A stretch of DNA of 64,000 bases from Nannocystales bacterium (GCA_050633305.1 JBOEGF010000024.1:373702-437701), one strand, 5' to 3'. Shown: positions 42,787 through 56,712, counted from the stretch's first letter. The notes: generated by a model not told the origin, from the letters alone. Numbers and translations are program-made.

Positions 42787-43947
42787 ATGAAACTCACCGA
42801 AGAACACGAGCAGCTCCGTGACACCTTGCGCAAGTTCATCGACCGCGAGATCAACCCCAACGTCGAGGCATGGGAGGATGAAAAGATCTTCCCCGCGCAC
42901 GAGCTGTTCAAGAAGCTCGGCGACCAGGGATTCCTTGGGGTGAGCAAGCCAGAAGCCTCGGGCGGCATGGGGCTGGACTACTCGTATTCCGTCTTGATGG
43001 CGGAGACTCTCGGTTGGGTCGACTGCGGCGCGATCCCGATGGCGATCGGCGTGCAGACGGACATGTGTACGCCTGCGCTGGCCAAGTTCGGCAGCGATGC
43101 GCTCAAGAAGGAGTTCCTCGAGCCGGCCATTGCGGGTGATGTCGTCGGGTCGATCGGCGTTAGCGAGCCCGGTGCGGGAAGCGACGTGGCGAGTATCAAG
43201 ACGACCGCTCGGCGGGACGGGGACGACTACGTCATCAACGGTACGAAAATGTGGATCACCAACGGCATGCAGGCCGACTGGATCTGCTTGCTCGCGAACA
43301 CGTCGGAGGGCAAGCCCCACAAGAACAAGTCGCTCATCATGGTGCCGCTGGACTCCAAGGGTGTGGAGCGGGCTCGCAAGCTCGACAAGATTGGGATGTG
43401 GGCTTCGGACACGGCGCAGCTGTTCTTCGATGACGTGCGGGTCCCGGCTCGAAACGTCATCGGACAAGAGGGCATGGGGTTCACCCTCCAGATGCTCCAG
43501 TTCCAAGAAGAACGGCTGTGGGGCGCGGCGAATGTGATCGGAGCGCTCGAGCACGCCTTGCAGATCACCAAGGAGTACACCGGTCAGCGTGAGGCGTTCG
43601 GGGCGACGATTCTCGACAACCAGTACGTACACTTCCGACTGGCCGAGCTCGCCACGGAGGTGGAGTGTCTGCGGGCGTTGGTCTGGAGCGCCACCGAGCA
43701 GTACATCTCGGGCAAGGACGTCACCCGGCTTGCCTCCATGGCCAAGCTCAAGGCTGGACGGTTGGCGCGCGAGGTGTCGGACGGCTGCCTGCAGTTCTGG
43801 GGCGGCATGGGCTACATGTGGGAATCCAAGATCTCGCGGTTCTTCCGCGATGGTCGGCTGATCTCGATCGGTGGCGGTGCGGACGAGATCATGCTCAGCA
43901 TCATCTGCAAGCTCGAGGGGACTCTGCCCCGACGAAAGAAGGCCTGA
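42787..43947 (+). CDS. atuD: Citronellyl-CoA dehydrogenase-like acyl-CoA dehydrogenase
   Basis: GVQTDMCTPAL, SEPGAGSDVA, QFQEERL, CLQFWGGMGY, SIGGGADEIML. Confidence 0.88.
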   Translation: MKLTEEHEQLRDTLRKFIDREINPNVEAWEDEKIFPAHELFKKLGDQGFLGVSKPEASGGMGLDYSYSVLMAETLGWVDCGAIPMAIGVQTDMCTPALAKFGSDALKKEFLEPAIAGDVVGSIGVSEPGAGSDVASIKTTARRDGDDYVINGTKMWITNGMQADWICLLANTSEGKPHKNKSLIMVPLDSKGVERARKLDKIGMWASDTAQLFFDDVRVPARNVIGQEGMGFTLQMLQFQEERLWGAANVIGALEHALQITKEYTGQREAFGATILDNQYVHFRLAELATEVECLRALVWSATEQYISGKDVTRLASMAKLKAGRLAREVSDGCLQFWGGMGYMWESKISRFFRDGRLISIGGGADEIMLSIICKLEGTLPRRKKA

Positions 43948-44765
43948 TGTCGCTGCCCGAGACTGAGCATCTACGCCTGTCGCTTTCGGATGGTGTCCTC
44001 ACCGTCCTGTTTGATCGTCCGCAGGTTCGCAACGCGATGAGCCTGCAAACGGTCTCGGAGCTGGAGGCGAGCTTCGAAGCGATCGCGGAACGACGGGATG
44101 TGCGCGTGGTGGTGCTTCGCGGAACGGGCGGACACTTCTGCGCCGGAGGCGACATCAAGGACATGGCTTCGGCCCGTGGCCGCCCACCGGGTGAGGATGG
44201 CAAGGACGCCCTGGCGGTCGTGAACCGGCGGTTCGGTTCGATGATCACAGCCGTGGACCGGGCGCCCCAAGCCGTCGTCGCGGTGTGTGAGGGGGCGGTG
44301 CTGGGTGGGGGCTTCGGTCTGGCCTGCGTCGCCGACGTCACGCTCACGCTGGCCGGGGCGAAGTTCGGCCTCCCGGAGACGGGGCTGGGCATTCCGCCGG
44401 CCCAGATCGCACCGTTTCTGGTCCGGCGCCTGGGGCTCTCGCAAGCTCGCCGACTCGCGGTGACCGGGGGTCGCTTCGACGGGCACCGTGCTGTCGCGAT
44501 CGGGCTGGCCCATGAGGTTGCCGAGGATGCGGACGCCCTCGAGGCCGTGCTCGCCGCGACGCTGAAGCAGGTGCTTCGATGTGCGCCCGGGGCGGTCGCC
44601 GTGACGAAACAACTGATGAACGACGCCGGGGATGTGGAGCTCGAGACACTTCTCGACGGAGCCGCGGATGCGTTCGCAGTTGCGGCACGAGGAGCCGAAG
44701 GCATCGAGGGAATGACTGCGTTCATGCAAAAACGCGAGCCGAGCTGGCCTGGAGGGGGCGCGTGA
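43947..44765 (+). CDS. atuE: Isohexenylglutaconyl-CoA hydratase-like enoyl-CoA hydratase
   Basis: FCAGGDIKDM, GGGFGLACV, LPETGLGIPPAQIAPF; TGATG coupling with the upstream gene. Confidence 0.88.
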   Translation: MSLPETEHLRLSLSDGVLTVLFDRPQVRNAMSLQTVSELEASFEAIAERRDVRVVVLRGTGGHFCAGGDIKDMASARGRPPGEDGKDALAVVNRRFGSMITAVDRAPQAVVAVCEGAVLGGGFGLACVADVTLTLAGAKFGLPETGLGIPPAQIAPFLVRRLGLSQARRLAVTGGRFDGHRAVAIGLAHEVAEDADALEAVLAATLKQVLRCAPGAVAVTKQLMNDAGDVELETLLDGAADAFAVAARGAEGIEGMTAFMQKREPSWPGGGA

Positions 44766-46726
44766 GCGGCTTCTCAACCGTCCTGGTCGCGAACCGGGGA
44801 GAGATTGCTGTGCGGGTCCTACGCACGGCCAGAGCGCTGGGCTACCGCACGGTTGCCGTCTACTCGGATGCCGACGCGGACGCTCCGCACACAACGTTGG
44901 CCGACGTCGCGGTGCGCATCGGTCCGGCTCCGGTGGGGCAGAGCTACCTCGATGTCGACGCCATCTTGGACGCAGCGCAGCGTAGCGGTGCGGATGCCGT
45001 TCATCCGGGCTACGGCTTCCTCAGCGAAAATGCCGAGTTTGCCCAGCGGTGTGCCGATGCAGGCCTGACGTTTGTCGGCCCGCCGCCGGAGGCCATCACG
45101 CTGATGGGCGACAAGGTCCAGGCGAAACTGCGGATGATCGCCGCCGACGTTCCGACCGCGCCCAGCTTCCTGGGCGGGGACGCATCTGTCGATACGCTGG
45201 TGGCCGAGGCGGGGAAGCTGGGGTTGCCGTTGTTGGTCAAAGCGAGTGCCGGGGGAGGCGGTCGCGGCATGCGGAAGGTCAGGCAGACCTCGGAGCTTGC
45301 CGAGGCGATCACGTCGGCGCAGGCCGAGGCCGGCTCCGCGTTTGGCAACCCGCACGTGTTTCTCGAGCGGCTGATCACCGGAGCGCGCCACGTGGAGGTG
45401 CAGGTGTTCGCCGACACCCATGGCAACGTGTTGCACCTGGGGGAGCGAGAGTGTTCGGCGCAGCGCCGTCACCAAAAGGTCGTGGAGGAAGCTCCATCAC
45501 CGGTGGTCGATGGGGCTCTGCGTGCCAAGATGGGGGATGCCGCGGTCGCTGCGGCGCGCGCGATCGGGTATGTGGGCGCGGGCACCGTTGAGTTCCTGCT
45601 CGACGACGAGGGCAACTTCTACTTCCTCGAGATGAACACGCGCCTGCAGGTTGAGCACCCCGTCACGGAGTGTGTGACCGGGCTGGATTTGGTCGCGTGG
45701 CAGCTCGATGTTGCCGCGGGCAAGCCGCTGCCGATGACGCAGGACGAGCTGCGGATGGATGGTCACGCCATCGAGGTGCGGCTGTACGCGGAAGACCCGT
45801 ACGCCGGGTTCTTGCCGCAGACGGGACATATCGTGCGCTTTGACGCCGCACCGGGAGTTCGTGTTGACTCGGGCATCTGTAGCGGCGGCGATGTCTCCGC
45901 CTTCTACGACCCGATGCTGGCCAAGTTGATCGCGCACGGTCGGGACCGTGACGAGGCGCTTCGCAAACTCCGTCGCGGGCTTCGAGACACGGTGTTGTTG
46001 GGGCCGGTGACGAACCTCGTGTTCCTGCAGGCTCTGATGGATGACCCCGACATGGTTGCGGGGACGATCAAGACCGACACGCTCGATGCCCGATTTGCCG
46101 AGCCTCCCGAGCGACCCGCCATCGCCATCGAGGCCTGGGCTCTCGCGGGGTTGGTGATGGCCCGCTCGCACGGTGTTGACCCCGAACTCGGCGACGGACA
46201 GGCGTGGCGCAGCAGCGGGGTTTTGCGAACGCCGATGACGCTTCGTTGTGGGGAAGAGCAGCGCGATGTGTCGGTCGAACTCGAGAACCGCGACGTCGCC
46301 GTGGTCAGCGTTGCCGAGGACTCCGTGTCGCTTCACGTCGTCTCGGACGTCGGTGGCTGTCTCCGCTTCGCAACTGGCGGCCTGCAGCGAACGGCCGTCT
46401 ACGCGGTTGACCGGACTCGGGCCTGGGTGAGCATCGACGGGGTTTCTCATGCGTTCGAGGAGCCAGACCTCCGAGCTGAGGCGGCCGAGTCCAGCGACGG
46501 CACAATCCGTTCTCCTCTGTCGGGCACCATCATGACGGTGCAGGTGCAGGAGGGGGAGAGCGTCAGCCGCGGTCAGCTTCTGGTGACGGTCGAGGCGATG
46601 AAGATGGAACACCGAATCGAGGCCCCGATCGACGGGGTGGCACGAGAGGTGACGGTGACCGCGGGTGACCAGGTCGCGGGCGAGCAAACGCTGCTGCGAA
46701 TCGAAAGCGAGGAGACCGAAGGATGA
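44762..46726 (+). CDS. atuF: Geranyl-CoA carboxylase alpha subunit (biotin carboxylase plus BCCP)
   Basis: ANRGEIA, HPGYGFLSEN, GGGGRGMR, EMNTRLQVEHPVTE, EAMKME; GTGA overlap. Confidence 0.9.
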   Translation: MSGFSTVLVANRGEIAVRVLRTARALGYRTVAVYSDADADAPHTTLADVAVRIGPAPVGQSYLDVDAILDAAQRSGADAVHPGYGFLSENAEFAQRCADAGLTFVGPPPEAITLMGDKVQAKLRMIAADVPTAPSFLGGDASVDTLVAEAGKLGLPLLVKASAGGGGRGMRKVRQTSELAEAITSAQAEAGSAFGNPHVFLERLITGARHVEVQVFADTHGNVLHLGERECSAQRRHQKVVEEAPSPVVDGALRAKMGDAAVAAARAIGYVGAGTVEFLLDDEGNFYFLEMNTRLQVEHPVTECVTGLDLVAWQLDVAAGKPLPMTQDELRMDGHAIEVRLYAEDPYAGFLPQTGHIVRFDAAPGVRVDSGICSGGDVSAFYDPMLAKLIAHGRDRDEALRKLRRGLRDTVLLGPVTNLVFLQALMDDPDMVAGTIKTDTLDARFAEPPERPAIAIEAWALAGLVMARSHGVDPELGDGQAWRSSGVLRTPMTLRCGEEQRDVSVELENRDVAVVSVAEDSVSLHVVSDVGGCLRFATGGLQRTAVYAVDRTRAWVSIDGVSHAFEEPDLRAEAAESSDGTIRSPLSGTIMTVQVQEGESVSRGQLLVTVEAMKMEHRIEAPIDGVAREVTVTAGDQVAGEQTLLRIESEETEG

Positions 46727-47589
46727 GCAACAAAGCCGTGGTGACGTGTGCCCTGACCGGGGTACTGACCAATCCCAAACAACATCCGGTGCCGGTGACG
46801 CCCGAGGAGATGGCCGCCGCTGCGAAAGAAGCGTTCGATGCGGGGGCCAGCGTGATGCATGTGCACTACCGGCGTCAGGAAGACGGGATGGGTCACCTCC
46901 CGACCTGGGACCCGGAGGTCTGCGGCACGATCACCGAGGCCATCCGAGCGGCCTGCCCCGGGGTGATCATCAACATGAGCACTGGGGTCATCGGACCGGA
47001 CGTTTCCGCTCCGTTGGCTGCGATGCCCCGTGTCAATCCGGAGATCGCGGCTTGCAATGCGGGAACGCTGAACTACCTCAAGACTCGCCGGGACGGGTCC
47101 TGGGCTTGGCCTCCCATGGTCTTCGACAACCCCGTCGCGAAGATCCAGGAGATGATCGAAGCGATGACGCCTCTGGGAGCGAAGCCAGAGTTCGAGTGTT
47201 TCGATACCGGCATCGTTCGCTCGGTCGGACTGTTCGTGGAGAACGGCATGGCGGAACGTCCGCACTACAACTTCGTCATGGGCGTTGCCTCGGGCATGCC
47301 AGCCGATCCCGACCTGCTGCCGTTGTTGCTGCGCTACATCAAGCCTGGCAGCACTTGGGAGGTCACGGCGATCGGTCGGGCCGACATTTGGCCGCTGCAC
47401 CAGAAGGCAGCCGAACTCGGAGGCGCGTTGAGAACCGGGGTGGAGGACACCTTCTACTTGCCGGGCGGCGAGCGTACCTCGGGCAACGGTCCGTTGGTCG
47501 AGAGCATCGTGGAGTGTGCTCGCAACGCGGGACGCGAGGTCGCGTCACCGCAAGAGGCAAGGACGCTGTTGGGACTGCGTGCTGGGTGA
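46723..47589 (+). CDS. BKACE/DUF849 beta-keto-acid cleavage enzyme
   Basis: TCALTG, PVTPEE, AGASVMHVH, KPEFECFD, RTGVED, GREVASPQEAR. Confidence 0.92.
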   Translation: MSNKAVVTCALTGVLTNPKQHPVPVTPEEMAAAAKEAFDAGASVMHVHYRRQEDGMGHLPTWDPEVCGTITEAIRAACPGVIINMSTGVIGPDVSAPLAAMPRVNPEIAACNAGTLNYLKTRRDGSWAWPPMVFDNPVAKIQEMIEAMTPLGAKPEFECFDTGIVRSVGLFVENGMAERPHYNFVMGVASGMPADPDLLPLLLRYIKPGSTWEVTAIGRADIWPLHQKAAELGGALRTGVEDTFYLPGGERTSGNGPLVESIVECARNAGREVASPQEARTLLGLRAG

Positions 47590-49455: not shown

Positions 49456-50499
49456 ATGCGAAAGTCGATCTACCGGGCGAGCGAGGCCGAGGCGGTGGCT
49501 GTCTTCGAACGGGCGCCCTTCGTCCATGTTGCGGGGACGAACGCGGTTGGTGACGTGATCCTGCGAACGTTGCACGCCGTTGTGGTGGGGGACGCCTTGG
49601 TGTTTCACGGTGCGTTGGCCGGGGAGAAGCTGGAGCTCGAGGGCCGCCCGGTGGTGGTCTCGGCGGAGGAGGTCGTCGCGGAGGTTCCCAGCTACGCGTC
49701 GGACCCCGAGCGTGCGTGCCCCGCAACGACCTATTACCGCGCCGCCCAGGTCCGGGGGGTCTTTGAGCCTGTCGAGGTTGCGGAAGCCAAGGCGTCCGTC
49801 ATGCAGGCGCTGATGGTCCGCTTTCAACCCGAAGGTGGGTACGTCCCGATCACTTCGGATGGCCCCTTGTACCGCCAGGCACTGCGTGGGCTCCGGGTCT
49901 GGAGGGTCGGGCTGCGGGGCGCGGTCGCAAAACACAAGCTTGGTCAGAACCGCCGGCCGGAGCAGCTGACGAAGGTCGTGGAGATGCTGTGGCGTCGAGG
50001 GGCGTCCGGAGACCTCGCGGCAATCGAGCTGCTCCGCCGCAGCCGCCCTGACCTTCCGGTCCCGGCGGCTCTTGGCGCGCCCGATGGGGTCACGTTGTGC
50101 TGCGCACCGTCGGCCGACGACGCCCGGGCGGTCGCGGACCTACTCGAGGGGACGTACTGGAACGAGGGCGTGACGCGGGAGCGTCGGGCTCGAGCTCACC
50201 AAGGGTCGGCGGCGTGGCTGGTTGCACGTTGGGGTGAGGCGGTGATCGGTAGCGCTCGCGTTGTCAGTGACGGTGCGCGCTTCGGGTACCTGGCAGACGT
50301 CGTTGTCGACGCGCAACACCGAGGTCGAGGGGTCGGTTCGGCCTTGTTGAGGGCGGTGCTCGATCACCCCGCCGTCCGTGACGTTGACCGAACCCTGCTA
50401 CGCACACGCGATGCCATGCCGCTGTACGAGGCGTTCGGGTTTGGGCTCGACTGCGGCCGGTCGGAGATCCGCTCGATGGTTCGACCCCGACAGCCGTAG
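49456..50499 (+). CDS. Split-barrel FMN-binding (PNPOx/PaiB-like) domain fused to a GNAT acetyltransferase
   Basis: FHGA..GEK, CPATTYY, KHKLGQNR; C-terminal YLADVVV...HRGRGVGSAL...LYEAFGF. Confidence 0.85.
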   Translation: MRKSIYRASEAEAVAVFERAPFVHVAGTNAVGDVILRTLHAVVVGDALVFHGALAGEKLELEGRPVVVSAEEVVAEVPSYASDPERACPATTYYRAAQVRGVFEPVEVAEAKASVMQALMVRFQPEGGYVPITSDGPLYRQALRGLRVWRVGLRGAVAKHKLGQNRRPEQLTKVVEMLWRRGASGDLAAIELLRRSRPDLPVPAALGAPDGVTLCCAPSADDARAVADLLEGTYWNEGVTRERRARAHQGSAAWLVARWGEAVIGSARVVSDGARFGYLADVVVDAQHRGRGVGSALLRAVLDHPAVRDVDRTLLRTRDAMPLYEAFGFGLDCGRSEIRSMVRPRQP

Positions 50500-50690
50500 T
50501 TGGGCGCCGCTTGCGATGCGCGTTCGTCGCACTGGCTTCGATTCACGCCGCGCAAGCCACACACCCGGGTCCTTTCGGTGTCTGAGGGCCTGCGATCGCC
50601 AAAAGAGGCCGCGCGGTGAAGGAACGGACTGTTGGCGGACATTCAAGCGCTGTGGGCGGCTCGCGCATGCCCTCACACGCAGGTTCGATC

Positions 50691-51812
50691 ATGAATACAC
50701 ATCGATTGTTGGCGACGTCTGTTCTGGCTCTCTCCTTGGCCGCTTGTGATGACACCGGGGGTGGTGACACCGGGGGGACGAGCGGGGCGGGCTCGACGGG
50801 TTCTACGTCGGGCGCGTCGGACTCGGCATCGGCATCGGCATCGGCATCGGCATCGGCTTCTGCATCCGGAACCACGACGACGGACGGAACGACGACCAGC
50901 GACAGCGCGACGGTCGGCGAGTCCTCGACCAGCGGCGGCAGCTCTTCGGGCAGTTCGGGTGGAGCCTCGGAGTCGACCGGCGGCGAGGGGTCTTCGACTG
51001 GAGAAGAGACCTCCTCGACCGGCGCCGCAAAGGCTCTTCCCGACCTCGACATGAACGACCCTGGTGTCATCAGTGACACCCAGGACAGCGTGTACATCGA
51101 GACGATCAACGTCACGAAGGCGTCCTGCGGTTTCCAGGACGGGTGTCTTGCGGGCACGGGCGAACGGCGGGTCCTCCGGTTCGACACGATCACCCCGAAC
51201 CTGGGAGACGCCGACTTCTTCGCCGGAAACCAGATGACGAACCCGGACCTTTTCGAGTTCAGCGAGTGCCAAGGCAGCTACGTCCTGGCTGACTACGCGC
51301 AGTACAGGCTGCTCGACGGCGACGGCAACGTCGTCGCAAACGGTCACAAGGCGGCGTTCGCCCTGATCGACCTGGCGATGTGGGTCCCGGGCTCGGGCCC
51401 GGGGCAGTACGGGTTCAACAACATGGGCATCACCGTCGGTTGGGCCGACATCTACGGCGCCGGCCTGACGTGCCAGTGGGTCGACATCACGGATGTGCCG
51501 CCGGGTGACTATGTGTTGGAGCTGAGCATCAACCCCGAGCACGTCATCGAAGAGTCCAACTTCGACAACAACATCCTTCTGCTCGATGTCGAGGTGACCG
51601 AGGGCGACACGGGACCTGGCGGCGTCGAGGTGCCCAAGGGCTGGAACTGCCCTGGCGGCTACTACGACGCAGCTGACGGGTGCGACTGCGGATGCGGAAT
51701 TGTCGACCCCGACTGCGCGGACGCGACGGTCGAGTCGTGCGGGTTCTGTGGCGATGGTTGCGGTACCACCTGCCTCGACATCGATCCGGACGACAACGCC
51801 ATCTGCATCTGA
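50691..51812 (+). CDS. Lysyl-oxidase-like lipoprotein lacking the Cu-binding His triad, with a C-terminal Cys-rich module
   Basis: Lipobox LAAC; LPDL, RRVLRFD..TPNLG.ADF, GHKAAF, GWADIY..LTCQWVDITDVPPGDYVL..INP..IEESNFDNN; tail WNC..YY...GCDCGCG..DPDC. Confidence 0.9.
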   Translation: MNTHRLLATSVLALSLAACDDTGGGDTGGTSGAGSTGSTSGASDSASASASASASASASGTTTTDGTTTSDSATVGESSTSGGSSSGSSGGASESTGGEGSSTGEETSSTGAAKALPDLDMNDPGVISDTQDSVYIETINVTKASCGFQDGCLAGTGERRVLRFDTITPNLGDADFFAGNQMTNPDLFEFSECQGSYVLADYAQYRLLDGDGNVVANGHKAAFALIDLAMWVPGSGPGQYGFNNMGITVGWADIYGAGLTCQWVDITDVPPGDYVLELSINPEHVIEESNFDNNILLLDVEVTEGDTGPGGVEVPKGWNCPGGYYDAADGCDCGCGIVDPDCADATVESCGFCGDGCGTTCLDIDPDDNAICI

Positions 51813-53641
51813 TGAGACGCGCACGGATCTTGTCTTCGGTATTGGGCGGCGTGGGACTGCTGGCTTCGGGCGTGGCTGAGGCCGCGCCCACGCAGCCGGG
51901 CGAGCTGACCAATCCGCTCGTCCGCGTGGAAGAGTGCGAGTACTGCCACACGTTCAACAACGACGCCGACGACCTCGAGGATCCAAGCTACGCGCCGTAC
52001 TTCAGCTGGCGGGGGTCGATGATGGCCAACGCCGCGGTCGACCCCGTGTTTTGGGCGGGCGTCGCCATTGCGAGCCAGGACGCGGCCGCGGCCGAAGAAA
52101 CCGAAGCGTGCATTCGTTGCCACTCGCCCCGCGCCTTCCTCGAGGGCCGGGGGAGCGCAACCTCCATCGATGACTTGCAGGATCGCGATCTAGCCGGGGT
52201 GACCTGCGAGTTGTGCCATCGCATGGAGGATGACGGCGGCATTGGGAATGGGCAGTACGCCGTCGACGACACGCTCGTCGGCGGCAACGTGCCACGGCGT
52301 GGGCCGTGGATCTACGGTGCGGACGATATCGAACCGCCCCCGCACAGCTGGGTTCAGGACACGTTTGTCGGGTCCTCCGAGGCCTGCGGAACCTGCCACG
52401 ATGTCACCACCGAGCGCCCGCGGGTCGACGATGATGGCGAGCCGACCGGTTCCAACTTCAATGAGCAGCGCACCTACAGCGAGTGGGCCGGCAGCGCGTT
52501 TGCGGATCCAGGCGTGGACTTCCGGTCTTGCCAGGACTGCCACATGCCCGCGGTCGAGGACGTGGCGGGCTGTCGCGACCACGTGGGTGTGCACGAGCAC
52601 GAGAGCGGCGGACGACGGCACGACATGGTGGGCGCCAACCGCTTCGTCGTCAGCCTGTTGGCGGAGGACGCGACCGTCTTGGATAACGTGGCGTTCAGCC
52701 ACACGCTCAACGTCATGGACGAGTTCCTGGAGACGGCCGCGACGCTGGAGGTGAGCTTCGCAGGCCCTGCGGACCTGGGAGAGGGACTCGACGGCCCCTT
52801 CGTGACGGTGACGAACCTGACCGGGCATAAACTGCCGACCGGATACTCCGAAGGCCGCGTGATGTGGCTCGAGGTCATCGTCCGCCACGAGGGCGAGGTT
52901 CTGTGGGAGTCCGGGACATGGGACGAGGCCCAGGGGACGATGCTCGAGGACCCGCAGTTGCGGACGTATCAAGGCGTTGCGGATTCGTATTCCACCGGTG
53001 AAACGCTGCATCTGCTTCGCAACGACCACTGGGTCCTCGATACCCGCATTCCGCCCCGAGGTCTGACGCCCGATCCGCAGACGGATCCCGTCGGTTCCCG
53101 ATACGCGGTCCAGGACGACGGCACGTGGCCGCACTTTGACGAGGTGGAGTACGCCTTTGACCCGGTGCCCGAGCTTGCCGACCTGGATGAAGGGGAGCTG
53201 GAGGTTTCGGTCCGGCTGCTCTATCTGGTGAACACGCGCTCGTACATCGACTTCCTCGCCGCGGAGAACCAGACCAACGACGCGGGCAACGACGTCGCGA
53301 TGTTGTTTGACGGCGCTGGGGGAGCGACACCGATGGTGCTCGCGCACGATGTTCAGCTCGTCCCGATCGCCAACCTCGGCGGAACCTCCACCGGGCAAGG
53401 GAGTACGTCCGCTGGGAATCCGAGCTCGAGCGGAGATGTCACCTCCGGTGGAGGCGGTACGACCACGAGTGGTTGGCCGTCGTCGGCGACGACGACGGCC
53501 AACGATGCCGGCACGTCATCGGGCACGGACGAAGTCTGTGACACCTGCGAAGGTGGCTGCGGCTGTACGAGCGGGGAGGGCGGCAGCGGATGGCTTCTTC
53601 TGGGGTTCATCGGCTGGGCGATACGCAGGAGGCGACGATGA
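51812..53641 (+). CDS. Pentaheme c-type cytochrome with a MYXO-CTERM-like anchor
   Basis: Signal peptide; CEYCH, CIRCH, CELCH, CGTCH, CQDCH; WRGSMMANAAVDP, GHKLPTG; C-terminal GCGC...WLLLG...RRRR. Confidence 0.9.
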   Translation: MRRARILSSVLGGVGLLASGVAEAAPTQPGELTNPLVRVEECEYCHTFNNDADDLEDPSYAPYFSWRGSMMANAAVDPVFWAGVAIASQDAAAAEETEACIRCHSPRAFLEGRGSATSIDDLQDRDLAGVTCELCHRMEDDGGIGNGQYAVDDTLVGGNVPRRGPWIYGADDIEPPPHSWVQDTFVGSSEACGTCHDVTTERPRVDDDGEPTGSNFNEQRTYSEWAGSAFADPGVDFRSCQDCHMPAVEDVAGCRDHVGVHEHESGGRRHDMVGANRFVVSLLAEDATVLDNVAFSHTLNVMDEFLETAATLEVSFAGPADLGEGLDGPFVTVTNLTGHKLPTGYSEGRVMWLEVIVRHEGEVLWESGTWDEAQGTMLEDPQLRTYQGVADSYSTGETLHLLRNDHWVLDTRIPPRGLTPDPQTDPVGSRYAVQDDGTWPHFDEVEYAFDPVPELADLDEGELEVSVRLLYLVNTRSYIDFLAAENQTNDAGNDVAMLFDGAGGATPMVLAHDVQLVPIANLGGTSTGQGSTSAGNPSSSGDVTSGGGGTTTSGWPSSATTTANDAGTSSGTDEVCDTCEGGCGCTSGEGGSGWLLLGFIGWAIRRRRR

Positions 53642-54912
53642 CGCGAACGAGAATCCTTGGAGTTGTGTTCGCTCTTGCCGCATGCGGCGACGCTCCCGGT
53701 ACGCGTTCCACCGATGGTTCGAGCGGGTCAACGGCGGAGGCAGGCTCGACCACTGCGTCCTCCGATGGAGGCGCGTCATCGGAGTCGAGCGGGGGCGGCA
53801 CAACGTCTCCAAGGGCGACCGGGTCCAGCGGGTCCAGCGGGGCGGATTCGAGTGAGACCAGCACGGGAGCCGGTCCGCTCGAGGTGACTCCGTGGGAATG
53901 GGCTCTGCCGCCAGGCTTCCCGCAGCCGGTCGTCCCGCAGAGCAATCCGATGACCGTCGAGGGGGTGGAGCTGGGTCGACACCTCTTCTTCGACACCCGG
54001 TTGTCGGTCGACGGCACATACGCCTGTTCGAGTTGTCACGACCCCGAATCTGCCTTCACCGACGGCCTCGCGATGGCCGAAGGCGTCACGGGCCAGATTC
54101 ACACCCGGGGCTCGATGAGCCTCGCGAACGTCGCCTACGCGGGCACGCTTGCCTGGGCGAACCCCGAGCTCCTCGACCTCGAGACCCACGCGCTGGTTCC
54201 GATGTTTGGCACCGAGCCTGTCGAGATGGGCTTGATCGACGAAGACGACCTCGTCTCACGGATCGCCAGCGAGCCGGTGTACGACGAACTCTTTGCGGCC
54301 GCGTATCCCACGGACGCTGACCCCATCACGCTGGCTCATGTGACCCAGGCGCTCGCGTCGTTTCAGCGCTCGCTGATCTCGGGCCGCGCTCCGTTCGACC
54401 GTTGGTTCTTCGAGGGCGACGAGGAGGCGATCAGCGAGGCAGCCAAGCGGGGGTGGGACCTCTTCAACGTCCCCGGCGAGTGCACCTACTGCCACTTCGG
54501 ATTCAACTTCTCCAACGCGTCCTACTTCGAGGGGATGCCTCAGCGGCCGCTGGAGTTTCACAACACCGCGCTCTACAACGAGGATGGCCAGGGCGGATAC
54601 CCGGCGGGCAATGAGGGGCTCTACGCGTTCTCCGGGGAGGATGCGGACATGGGCAAGTTCAAATCCCCGACCCTGCGAAACATCGCCGTGACCGCGCCGT
54701 ACATGCATGACGGCAGTATCGCGACGCTGGAGGAGATGCTGGAGCACTACTCGGTCGGCGGCCGTGTCGAGTCTCCCAACGCCGACCATCGGATGCGCAC
54801 GTTCACCCTCAAGGACGACGAGGTGGCAGACCTCATCGCATTCTTCGAGAGCCTGACGGACGACGCATTTCTCACCAACCCCGCCCACGCCGACCCTTGG
54901 GTCGGCCGCTAG
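53638..54912 (+). CDS. MbnH/MauG-type di-heme enzyme (bCCP superfamily) lipoprotein
   Basis: AGGAGG RBS, lipobox LAAC, WALPPGFP.P.VP..NPMT...ELGRHLF, CSSCH, CTYCH, FKSPTLRNIAVTAPYMHDGS, LEHY (Tyr at the heme-ligand position). Confidence 0.9.
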   Translation: MTRTRILGVVFALAACGDAPGTRSTDGSSGSTAEAGSTTASSDGGASSESSGGGTTSPRATGSSGSSGADSSETSTGAGPLEVTPWEWALPPGFPQPVVPQSNPMTVEGVELGRHLFFDTRLSVDGTYACSSCHDPESAFTDGLAMAEGVTGQIHTRGSMSLANVAYAGTLAWANPELLDLETHALVPMFGTEPVEMGLIDEDDLVSRIASEPVYDELFAAAYPTDADPITLAHVTQALASFQRSLISGRAPFDRWFFEGDEEAISEAAKRGWDLFNVPGECTYCHFGFNFSNASYFEGMPQRPLEFHNTALYNEDGQGGYPAGNEGLYAFSGEDADMGKFKSPTLRNIAVTAPYMHDGSIATLEEMLEHYSVGGRVESPNADHRMRTFTLKDDEVADLIAFFESLTDDAFLTNPAHADPWVGR

Positions 54913-54952
54913 GCGGGGCGCCATCCCACGGGGGGCCGGGGCCGGGCGTAGG

Positions 54953-56530
54953 CTAGCCTGGCTCTTGCTCGTCGTCCTCGGGGCTCGTGCGGACGGCTTT
55001 GGCGAGCAAGGCCGTGCCCAGAGCCGCAGCGCCGATGCGGCTCTCGCCTTGCACGCTGCAGCCTCCGCCGCCGCCCGAGGCTCCACCCGACGCGTCGGTG
55101 TCGGTGTCGCCCCCGGTCACGTCGTCCGCGGAGCTGCCCGAGGAGTCGCCACCTGGCGTTGCGGTGGTGCCACTCGCGGAGTCACTGTCGCTGGTCTCGC
55201 CGGGTCCTGTGGTTTGCTCGCCTGTCTCACCACCGGACTCGCCTCCCGTGCTGGAGTCGCCTCCCCCGGACCCGTCGGGGAACGGACCGGTCACCATGAG
55301 CGTGAGCCCTTCCTCCTGGATGTTCACGAACAGCGCCGTGCCATCCGGAGAGAAGCAAGCGCCGGTGAGCTCGCTGTCGCTGAGGGCGTTGCGTGCGAAG
55401 TCGCAGAGGGTCCCGTCTTCGGCGAGCACACGGACGAACTGGTCGTTGTTGCCGTCCTCGCAGATGAACAGCTCGCCCCATGGGGCGACGGTGAGGTTGT
55501 CGGGGAAGTCGAGGGTTGCGGCGCCGTCGGAGACCGCGATGAGCTCGAGGGTGCCGGTGTCGCCGTCGTCGATGACACGGAAGATCTGGCCGAGCCCAGC
55601 GGGGCCGCCGTTGGTGCAGGAGAAGTAGATCTCTCCTTCGAAGTACCAGAGACCTTCGCCGCGGATGAACACGCTTGCACCATCCGCCTGTGCGGCGTAA
55701 CGAACGGTGTCGTCATCGGGGGCGGGCTCCGCGATGTCGACCCATTCGATCTCGAAAATCTCTCCCACTTTGCCCAAACCGGCGGTGTTGAGCGTGTCGG
55801 TGTCGAGGATTCGTAGCGCCTGGAGACGGCCCTCAAACGGAAACTCGAGGTCGTCGGGGACGTGTCGGTAGAAGCAGCCGTCGCCGCGGTCCTCGGTCAG
55901 GTACGTGACGAGGGTGTCGGGGTCGACCGCGGCCGCTTCGTGGTTGTAGCGGCCAAACCCGATGATCGGCTCGGCGGGGACGACCGACTCGGCGTCTTGA
56001 GGGCAGGCGAAGACGTAGCCGTGCTCGCCCACCGTGTTCTCCTCGCAGGAGAGCCAGCCCCAGGGGCTCGGGCCGCCCGCGCAGTTGCGGACGGTCCCGG
56101 TGAGCACGAGGTTGGTCGAGATGACCGTGCCCGTCTCTGCGTTGATGACGACCCGCGTCACGCCGCCGAAGCCGTCCGGATCGTAGGCTTCTTTGGGTGC
56201 TTCTCCATCGGCGTACGCGCCGTTGGCGTCGTCGCCCGCGCTGACCTCGTGGTTGCGCATGAGCAGCCAGGTGCCGTCAGCTCCGGCGAAGCAGGCCATG
56301 CCGTCGGGGCGGCCGGGTACGACGTAGCCGTCGGCCATCGAGGCGCCAGCTTCTTGCAGCACCGTGTAGGAGAAGCCTTCTGGGAGATCGAGGATCCCGT
56401 CCGGATCGGCGACCAGCTTGCCGTACTCGCTCGCCGAGGCTCGACGGGAGAACAGGCTGGAGAACAGTGCCGCGGCTCCAGCAGCGCCCAGCGACCCCTT
56501 CACAAACACACGACGGCCTAAGCGATTCAT
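54953..56530 (-). CDS. PhoX/DUF839-family alkaline phosphatase (Tat-exported, with a C-terminal anchor)
   Basis: GRRVFVK Tat motif, PDGM, RNHE, NCAGG.SPWG.WLSCEE, GRYNHEA, RGEG, PDNL, ELTG..FSPDG; S/T/G linker then GGGCSV tail. Confidence 0.9.
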   Translation of the reverse strand: MNRLGRRVFVKGSLGAAGAAALFSSLFSRRASASEYGKLVADPDGILDLPEGFSYTVLQEAGASMADGYVVPGRPDGMACFAGADGTWLLMRNHEVSAGDDANGAYADGEAPKEAYDPDGFGGVTRVVINAETGTVISTNLVLTGTVRNCAGGPSPWGWLSCEENTVGEHGYVFACPQDAESVVPAEPIIGFGRYNHEAAAVDPDTLVTYLTEDRGDGCFYRHVPDDLEFPFEGRLQALRILDTDTLNTAGLGKVGEIFEIEWVDIAEPAPDDDTVRYAAQADGASVFIRGEGLWYFEGEIYFSCTNGGPAGLGQIFRVIDDGDTGTLELIAVSDGAATLDFPDNLTVAPWGELFICEDGNNDQFVRVLAEDGTLCDFARNALSDSELTGACFSPDGTALFVNIQEEGLTLMVTGPFPDGSGGGDSSTGGESGGETGEQTTGPGETSDSDSASGTTATPGGDSSGSSADDVTGGDTDTDASGGASGGGGGCSVQGESRIGAAALGTALLAKAVRTSPEDDEQEPG

Positions 56531-56712
56531 GCTGGCATCATGCCCTGAGCCCGGTCGCGGCGCAGTCACGAACTGGAAAACTGACCGAAACATGAGCTGG
56601 AGACCGGAAGCCGAGCTCGGTGCGGGGTGGAGCCACGCGGGTCGGCGTGGGGAAGCGAGGGATGGACGACGGGTTGAAATCGTTTGGCCCGCTCGCGCGT
56701 ATTCGTCTCCCT

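Follow-up and report, generated by a model that had tools for sequence, protein, structure and literature searches.

A lysyl oxidase-fold lipoprotein without copper histidines as candidate substrate of a co-encoded MbnH-family di-heme enzyme

Based on our comparisons, we propose that a bacterial protein with the fold of lysyl oxidase (LOX), which no longer carries the histidines that bind copper, is a substrate of the di-heme enzyme encoded beside it. The genes lie in a 64,000-nt stretch of DNA from a Nannocystales bacterium (GCA_050633305.1 JBOEGF010000024.1:373702-437701), the whole of which is called the window here; at positions 50691-54912 it holds three plus-strand genes with overlapping ends, namely gene 1 for the LOX-fold lipoprotein, gene 2 for a pentaheme cytochrome and gene 3 for an enzyme of the MbnH family. 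Since the copper ligands of gene 1 are lost, the Lys and Tyr of the lysine tyrosylquinone (LTQ) cofactor are kept, their surroundings are remodeled, and a private MbnH-type enzyme has been inherited and duplicated together with the gene, the gene 1 product is in our judgment probably the substrate of gene 3. The complete scheme, in which gene 3 would mature gene 1 to a Lys-Tyr quinone and the mature protein would oxidize amines without copper, is one to which we give an even chance. The evidence on the unit is comparative throughout, and from it we infer the interaction of the two proteins, the modified residue, the activity and the role of the cytochrome.

A lysyl oxidase lineage without copper ligands

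Gene 1 (50691-51812, plus strand) encodes a protein of 373 amino acids (aa) that matches the Pfam family Lysyl_oxidase (PF01186) with an E-value of 1.6e-32 and 113.3 bits, the cut-off being 20.4, and human LOXL2 (5ze3) by sequence with an E-value of 1.6e-24 in HMMER. Because the model of its domain, with a predicted local distance difference test (pLDDT) score of 88.2, superposes on 5ze3_A with a template modeling (TM) score of 0.83, a root-mean-square deviation (rmsd) of 2.4 Å and 34% identity, we assign the lysyl oxidase fold to this catalytic-type domain (residues 112-305; 51024-51605). In the alignment with 5ze3, the copper motif of LOXL2, WHDCHRHYH, faces FSECQGSYV of gene 1, and the site that reads CHxHxH in canonical LOX is here a degenerate CQGSYV (51267-51284). 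HMMER also places GHKASF of LOXL2 opposite GHKAAF, and CWDMY opposite GWADIY; Lys220 (51348-51353 together with Ala221) and Tyr255 (51453-51455) of gene 1 stand opposite the Lys of GHK and the Tyr of DMY in LOXL2, whose K653 and Y689 we take to be the LTQ residues. Gene 1 thus lacks the three-histidine copper site, as an earlier note on this DNA, made from the sequence alone, had read it, and carries Lys and Tyr at the two LTQ positions. Passages of Grau-Bove et al. 2015 (PMC4448552) give two requirements for LOX activity, the histidine core on the one hand and K320/Y355 of human LOX on the other, and report them as kept in all groups but one red alga.

A search of a 5.8-billion-protein collection returned 129 homologues, and a MAFFT alignment was built from the 120 listed and the query. 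Rows were kept if they covered at least 150 residues of the LOX domain and had Lys at position 220; matches to the Cys-rich tail only, P0053 (a long branch with no Lys at 220) and the His-less P0081, P0086 and P0099, which fall outside the main clade, were left out, and 39 rows of the His-less clade were compared with 57 His-bearing rows. The 39 rows comprise the window protein, 37 clusters that are fully His-less and P0031 with its single remaining His; they are 47-93% identical and form a clade on the FastTree tree (local support 99), with 13 His-bearing proteins that share the Cys-rich tail as its sister. All three copper positions are His in 57/57 His-bearing rows, and none is His in the His-less clade except the one in P0031; the former His positions drift there, with S/Q/G at the first, T/A/S at the second and L/V at the third. 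Tyr255 is found in all 39 and all 57 rows, as is Lys220, on which the rows were selected. Position 221, Ala in gene 1, is Ser or Ala in 39/39 His-less rows and Gln in 51/57 His-bearing rows, and position 245 (51423-51425) is Met in 39/39 and Gln in 51/57. Thr130, Gly241, Phe242 and Leu296 are further residues specific to the His-less clade, and most Cys positions are common to gene 1 and canonical LOX.

From this alignment, five active-site positions, the three His and the two Gln, have changed together in the His-less clade, with the cofactor residues kept under selection. Drift of the metal site combined with conservation of Lys220 and Tyr255 is what one would expect of a protein in which this Lys and Tyr are still required, and does not fit a dead enzyme; the His-less LOX is a conserved lineage and not a decayed gene. 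One could nevertheless regard gene 1 as a non-catalytic binding or scaffold pseudoenzyme that presents a third substrate to gene 3, or suppose that the two genes merely share regulation and location. That the metal site is gone, with nothing conserved in place of its ligands, would suit such a role, as would the long flexible linkers on which the products of genes 1 and 3 sit and the wide occurrence of the Cys-rich module of gene 1 in surface proteins of Myxococcota. This reading accounts poorly, however, for Lys220, Tyr255 and their surroundings being invariant over rows so divergent in identity, and for a second LOX copy that lacks the Cys-rich module and still keeps an MbnH of its own, and we consider it highly improbable.

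Independent His-less LOX variants also occur outside the main clade, in P0081, P0086 and P0099 (CQQRYD, CQMTFD, CQESYD), at L135 3234-3788 (CTMQYR) and at L091. Most LOX genes of the window's family are long and His-bearing, with the motif FHYSxCHxHYH in open frames of ~600-750 aa, and up to four LOX genes are found per genome; this set is a large, unstudied bacterial LOX expansion.

The MbnH-like partner gene

Our survey of GTDB, with one genome per species and an alignment of His-less and His-bearing homologues as the query, gave 78 distinct loci; at ~60 of these only the Cys-rich module is matched, and 16 hold a LOX domain, which is His-less in 9 and His-bearing in 7. An MbnH-like gene lies downstream on the same strand at 9/9 His-less loci, with a pentaheme gene in between at 4/9, and at 0/7 His-bearing loci, 5 of which have at least 1500 base pairs (bp) of downstream sequence. 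At a further locus, L061, the pentaheme and MbnH genes are present and the contig breaks off within the LOX gene. In 60 genomes of the window's family, a census yielded 62 LOX matches in 32 genomes and 85 MbnH matches. All 10 His-less LOX genes, from 8 genomes and 3 genera (one each in G000, G053, G024, G014, G033 and G022, two each in G044 and G050), are directly followed on the same strand by an MbnH-like gene, and none of the 52 His-bearing ones, 31 of them with at least 1500 bp downstream, has such a neighbor. The contigs of the scan and the census are identical, and the two counts are not additive. Among JGI metagenomes, 0/79 His-bearing LOX matches (80 loci; 43 with at least 1500 bp downstream) have an MbnH-like neighbor, and the single one of three His-less matches with enough flank does. 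The earlier note had proposed this co-occurrence of His-triad loss and an MbnH-like neighbor as a test, and the counts bear it out. The relation also holds in reverse: 10/10 genomic MbnH matches that are at least 63% identical to that of the window adjoin a His-less LOX gene (in G052, which is L061, the LOX gene is cut off), and the next match, 61% identical, has MbnP upstream.

A multiheme neighbor and a conserved order of three genes had been put to the same test, and here the expectation held in half of the cases: the three-gene order is found at 5/10 His-less loci (6/11 with L061), and the others are LOX-MbnH pairs without a cytochrome. Because only these five carry it, the cytochrome is no obligatory part of the unit. 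Two genomes have two LOX-MbnH pairs each, in which one LOX is full-length and the other is without the Cys-rich tail (L020, L021). Since each kind of pair has its own subclade in the LOX tree and in the MbnH tree, LOX and MbnH were duplicated as a unit. A LOX-MbnH fusion was also considered at L020 and L021 (open reading frames of 822 and 842 aa) and was rejected, the LOX match being in a different reading frame; the long frame is that of MbnH, extended upstream in GC-rich DNA.

Gene 3 (53638-54912, plus strand) encodes a lipoprotein of 424 aa, with a lipobox LAAC (Cys16 at 53683-53685) and a Ser/Thr/Gly-rich linker. It passes the cut-off of the MbnH model TIGR04039 (425.1 bits; cut-off 362.85) and does not reach that of the MauG model TIGR03791 (201.6 bits; cut-off 443.85); it belongs to the bacterial di-heme peroxidase superfamily by PF03150 (E 7e-45), and its best solved relative is 6e1c (E 8.6e-88). 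The sequence features of the MbnH family are there: two c-type heme motifs, CSSCH (54025-54039) and CTYCH (54481-54495), an inter-heme Trp (Trp173) and a Tyr at the distal-ligand position (Tyr371, 54748-54750), the candidate axial ligand of the six-coordinate heme, these roles being taken in part from the MauG and BthA papers. Both motifs and Tyr371 are kept in 10/10 LOX-linked MbnH proteins, and Trp173 is invariant in the ten that were aligned. Tyr371 has a Tyr as its counterpart in 6e1c; in the di-heme peroxidase 2c1u, it aligns with the last residue of '...AVKIM', a Met. The stretch matched by HMMER in MauG 3l4m ends at query residue 371 and chain residue 294, and Tyr294 is the axial ligand in MauG. 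Passages of PMC6405878 describe Tyr-His ligation for the six-coordinate heme of MauG.

Membership of this superfamily, as well as the multiheme cytochrome that stands between the two genes at half of the loci, could point to a redox partnership without protein modification, in which gene 3 would be a peroxidase or an electron-transfer partner with the cytochrome, removing H2O2 or shuttling electrons. A scavenger, however, would be expected beside the LOX enzymes that produce H2O2; because these His-bearing LOX genes never have an MbnH-like neighbor (0/52, 0/79), the opposite of that prediction, a role in H2O2 scavenging is unlikely. In place of the Met ligand of peroxidases, gene 3 has a Tyr; its score exceeds the MbnH cut-off; and MauG-type members are poor peroxidases according to passages of PMC11892367. 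Overall, we give such a partnership very little credence.

The partner usual for the family, an adjacent MbnP (TIGR04052), is not what gene 3 has: our neighbor survey of the locus found no MbnP gene in the neighborhood of the unit, in keeping with what had first been noticed beside the di-heme gene. The window's genome encodes three proteins above the MbnH cut-off, of which two directly follow its only two MbnP genes and the third is gene 3. The two ordinary MbnP-MbnH pairs lie at G000:C8:282983-285115 and G000:C14:244033-246463 (L001-L004), with no methanobactin context where we looked. That gene 3 serves a distant MbnP was considered and rejected: both MbnP genes (contigs C8 and C14) have an adjacent MbnH of their own. 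A quick IQ-TREE tree of 45 MbnH sequences unites the 11 that are LOX-linked in a single clade (SH-aLRT 100, stem 0.46), nested among MbnH genes that have MbnP directly upstream in 31/34 cases; the LOX-linked sequences are 61-69% identical among themselves and 45-58% identical to the MbnP-linked ones. Of additional note, the LOX-linked MbnH at L018 11065-12027 (= G033:C40) matches only to query residue 300 in tblastn, or 221 in the genome search, and may be C-terminally truncated or frameshifted.

The nesting of gene 3 within MbnP-linked genes speaks for the main rival of our proposal, an MbnP-like outcome in which gene 3 would turn a Trp of gene 1, for example the invariant Trp251 four residues before Tyr255, into kynurenine and so create, in place of the lost His triad, a new His/Met/kynurenine metal site that binds copper for handling or catalysis. 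As PMC11951088 describes the MbnH reaction in the passages concerned, the conversion of Trp to kynurenine gives a copper site of His, Met, kynurenine and solvent, and in gene 1 the invariant Met245, gained in the His-less clade (39/39), is near in sequence to the kept His219 and to Trp251. Trp251 and His219 are, however, no new features, as His-bearing LOX conserves them to the same degree; gene 1 is without the WxW-type motif of MbnP; and no TonB-type or copper-transport gene is linked to the unit, among the neighbors in the window or in the flanks of the other loci. This outcome would also leave the invariance of Lys220 and Tyr255 beside a drifting metal site without an explanation. On balance, we think it unlikely.

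A proposed maturation route

In the mechanism that we favor, genes 1 and 3 would form a maturation pair of a substrate protein and its enzyme, with the cytochrome as an optional addition. Gene 3 would be a MauG-type oxidant that H2O2, or else O2 plus electrons, would bring to a high-valent bis-Fe(IV) state and that would oxidize residues of the co-encoded gene 1 lipoprotein at a distance; for MauG-type enzymes, formation of Fe(IV)Fe(IV)=O with H2O2 is described in passages of PMC11892367. Its action would replace the copper- and O2-dependent self-processing of canonical lysyl oxidases. According to the relevant parts of PMC11951088, LTQ formation is autocatalytic and depends on copper and O2, tryptophan tryptophylquinone (TTQ) and the kynurenine of MbnP are made enzymatically by MauG and MbnH, and no structure of the mature LTQ site exists. 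The likeliest product of gene 3 would be an LTQ-type quinone of Lys220 and Tyr255, formed through hydroxylation of the Tyr, its cross-linking to the Lys and oxidation, steps that parallel the three that MauG carries out on methylamine dehydrogenase. In its mature form, the gene 1 protein would then catalyze a copper-free oxidation of primary amines at the cell envelope or surface. Bovine LOX depleted of copper has reportedly remained active; in that case, a quinone formed beforehand would be enough for activity. Where it is present, gene 2 would carry electrons, which could leave the reduced quinone through it or be delivered by it to the di-heme enzyme for activation with O2; that the pentaheme cytochrome is the electron acceptor is a guess. 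Taken to its most specific form, the scheme would have a Tyr-derived quinone (LTQ or a relative) set by a MauG/MbnH-type enzyme in a copper-free LOX fold, at work on the myxobacterial cell surface, with a hand-off of electrons to the pentaheme cytochrome in the ancestral three-gene form, which would make the protein an amine dehydrogenase and not an oxidase that produces H2O2; we put this forward tentatively, as less likely than not.

Modeling of the pair, which the earlier note had suggested as a check, gave a modest signal. The MbnH domain with two hemes and the LOX domain, each protein entered as an alignment, were predicted in one job; the interface score ipSAE was 0.46 (0.47, 0.46 and 0.35 in the runs), and the best of three controls gave 0.11. 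At least 80% of the contacts agree among the runs, and the partner pLDDT is at least 87. In the benchmark, the ipSAE mark was reached by 116/157 solved complexes and by 2/215 mismatched pairs, and the range of 0.60 or under held 18/157 solved complexes together with both mismatches that passed. The prediction thus lends weak support to a LOX-MbnH contact and is a small addition to the case.

Several observations weigh against the proposed maturation and need to be set beside those for it. The modeling reported no interface. The only chemistry of the MbnH family given in the passages of PMC11951088 is the conversion of Trp to kynurenine in MbnP, with no oxidation of Tyr. Passages of PMC6508830 and PMC4448552 describe red-algal LOX-like proteins from which the His core is absent and in which Lys and Tyr are kept; since red algae, being eukaryotes, are not expected to have MbnH, loss of the His need not by itself require an MbnH partner. 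The association of His-less LOX with MbnH is probably a single evolutionary event inherited in 3 genera of one family, and the counts given above are not independent. Because the unit is found in only 2/7 genomes of the window's own genus, it is dispensable. None of 47 longer LOX homologues carries a CCP_MauG domain that would indicate a LOX-MbnH fusion, which is weak negative evidence. Finally, the cytochrome is missing at 5/10 His-less loci, and its paralogues pair with unrelated FG-GAP/ASPIC proteins. The view that the LOX-fold protein is the di-heme substrate, already put forward before this analysis, comes out of it partly supported: the complete linkage (10/10) and the separate MbnH clade favor it, the three-gene order holds in part, and the complex prediction adds weak support.

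If the proposal is right, it would add a second, enzymatic route to the LTQ cofactor class and would give the first Tyr-derived quinone cofactor installed by a MauG/MbnH-type enzyme. The substrate range of these enzymes would be widened from Trp to Tyr and Lys, or else a new fold would be seen to bear kynurenine sites. The LOX active site could also be made and studied in a bacterial system that is free of copper and possibly easier.

The locus, its cytochrome and related systems

The three genes are coupled through overlapping ends, as the earlier note had described: gene 1 ends and gene 2 begins within TGATG at 51810-51814, and ATGA at 53638-53641 holds both the gene 2 stop and the gene 3 start, with AGGAGG immediately upstream. 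Its assignment of two lipoproteins and one MYXO-CTERM product is likewise confirmed by the lipoboxes of genes 1 (Cys19) and 3 (Cys16) and by a TIGR03901 match in gene 2. Gene 1 opens with a signal peptide with lipobox LAAC (Cys19 at 50745-50747) and, from residue 20 to 111, a Ser/Thr/Gly-rich linker (together 50691-51023), as read from the translation; a signal peptide ending in Cys also opens its orthologues in L012, L013, L016 and L018. The Cys-rich module (DGCDCGCG...DPDC) lies at the C-terminal end (51633-51809, from the alignment) and has no Pfam or NCBIfam match at E up to 0.01. The same module, with the pattern W.C...DGCDCGCG..DPDC..., is the C-terminal part of many otherwise unrelated Myxococcota proteins (loci L028-L089).

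The flanks are functionally unrelated to the unit. Upstream are a GntR-aminotransferase regulator gene, a PNPOx+GNAT gene and genes of the leucine-catabolism type; an upstream block (43665-47589) comprises an enoyl-CoA hydratase, a biotin carboxylase of the methylcrotonyl-CoA carboxylase alpha type and a beta-keto acid cleavage enzyme of the BKACE family, and has no link to the unit. A PhoX-type alkaline phosphatase gene (54953-56593, minus strand) converges on the end of gene 3 and is not kept beside the unit at other loci. Around the 9 other His-less loci, no gene family recurs in the flanks, which thus yielded no further component, and no other mau genes are present at the locus. A promoter and terminator scan of 50300-55200 found none, a scan that is uninformative in a myxobacterium of 67% GC; GC is about 67% across this DNA.

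Gene 2 (51812-53641, plus strand) encodes a pentaheme c-type cytochrome of 609 aa with a MYXO-CTERM anchor. An ordinary signal peptide is followed by five CxxCH motifs (51935-51949, 52109-52123, 52205-52219, 52385-52399 and 52529-52543), a conserved non-heme C-terminal domain, a second low-complexity linker and the MYXO-CTERM sorting tail (53549-53638; TIGR03901, E 4.4e-6, 27 bits, cut-off 20). The tail reads ...GCGC...WLLLGFIGWAIRRRRR, that is, a Cys-rich stretch, a hydrophobic helix and an Arg tail. Pfam multiheme matches are weak, and by sequence the best match in the PDB has an E-value of 0.022, with none to 5ze8 at E up to 0.1. The model of the C-terminal beta domain resembles 5ze8_A (Z 11.4, rmsd 3.4, 162 aligned residues, 20% identity), a comparison that covers this domain only, the heme domain (residues 1-246) having an AlphaFold pLDDT under 50.

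The gene 2 family has several copies per genome. There are two further ones in the window's genome, and genomes with cytochrome-less LOX loci carry 56-58% identical copies elsewhere. At 4/7 paralogue loci, the cytochrome gene stands directly behind one for an FG-GAP/ASPIC-UnbV protein with a MopE-type putative metal-binding motif (L264 6076-9969, L267 1568-5733, L268 6259-10127 and L269 4259-8145; paralogues 53-58% identical), apparently a further conserved pairing of this cytochrome with an envelope protein; at 2/7 it stands behind a spermine-synthase-like methyltransferase gene. This type of cytochrome seems to serve envelope proteins as a modular electron carrier and not to be specific to LOX. 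Since the pentaheme-bearing loci (L016, L061, L018, L012, the window and L013) include all early branches of the LOX-linked MbnH clade, the three-gene form looks ancestral, and the pair form would be a later loss in one genus.

That no system of this kind had been described was also the expectation of the earlier note, and we found no description of one: a full-text literature search, with most subscription journals outside its coverage, gave no link of lysyl oxidase to MbnH, MauG or di-heme enzymes and no mention of a bacterial His-less LOX. The word 'lysyl' is absent from the superfamily network paper PMC6405878. Among known systems, the unit is probably best described as a maturation pair of the MauG/MbnH type in which the substrate fold is new and the product probably so.

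MauG and pre-methylamine dehydrogenase, the system of TTQ biogenesis, provide a chemical model. Like MauG, gene 3 is a di-heme enzyme of the CCP_MauG superfamily, has Tyr at the axial-ligand position and is encoded beside its presumed target, and the hydroxylation, cross-link and oxidation to a quinone of the MauG system mirror the steps proposed here. Gene 3 nevertheless scores below the TIGR03791 cut-off; its partner has a LOX fold and is not the beta subunit of methylamine dehydrogenase; the proposed target is Tyr plus Lys, whereas that of MauG is Trp plus Trp; and the unit is without other mau genes. MbnH/MbnP (6e1c) is closer in sequence, gene 3 being a member of TIGR04039, and is likewise a two-gene partner system of lipoprotein or periplasmic proteins. 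Here, however, the upstream partner is LOX-fold and not MbnP (TIGR04052), and the enzyme forms a clade of its own. With canonical LOX (human LOX, LOXL2 5ze3 and the bacterial His-bearing proteins), gene 1 shares the fold, the Lys, the Tyr and most Cys, but it has lost the three copper His and two neighboring Gln, and canonical LOX needs no helper gene and has none linked.

Dedicated, co-encoded enzymes that install a protein-derived quinone are also described, in PMC7876137, for QHNDH with QhpG and for LodA/GoxA with its flavoprotein, and QHNDH joins its quinone to c-type hemes. These systems, which we liken to the unit by description only, differ in their helpers, which are flavoproteins and radical-SAM enzymes, and in their cofactor, cysteine tryptophylquinone (CTQ), from Trp. 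The red-algal LOX-like proteins of the acidophilic Cyanidium and Cyanidioschyzon resemble gene 1 in having no histidine core and keeping the LTQ Lys and Tyr, but they are eukaryotic, and the passages of PMC6508830 and PMC4448552 that treat them report no di-heme partner. Gene 2, in turn, recalls the pentaheme cytochrome c552 of Thermochromatium tepidum (5ze8), with five hemes followed by a beta-sandwich to which its C-terminal domain corresponds in structure; unlike that cytochrome, to which it has no sequence match, it adds a MYXO-CTERM anchor.

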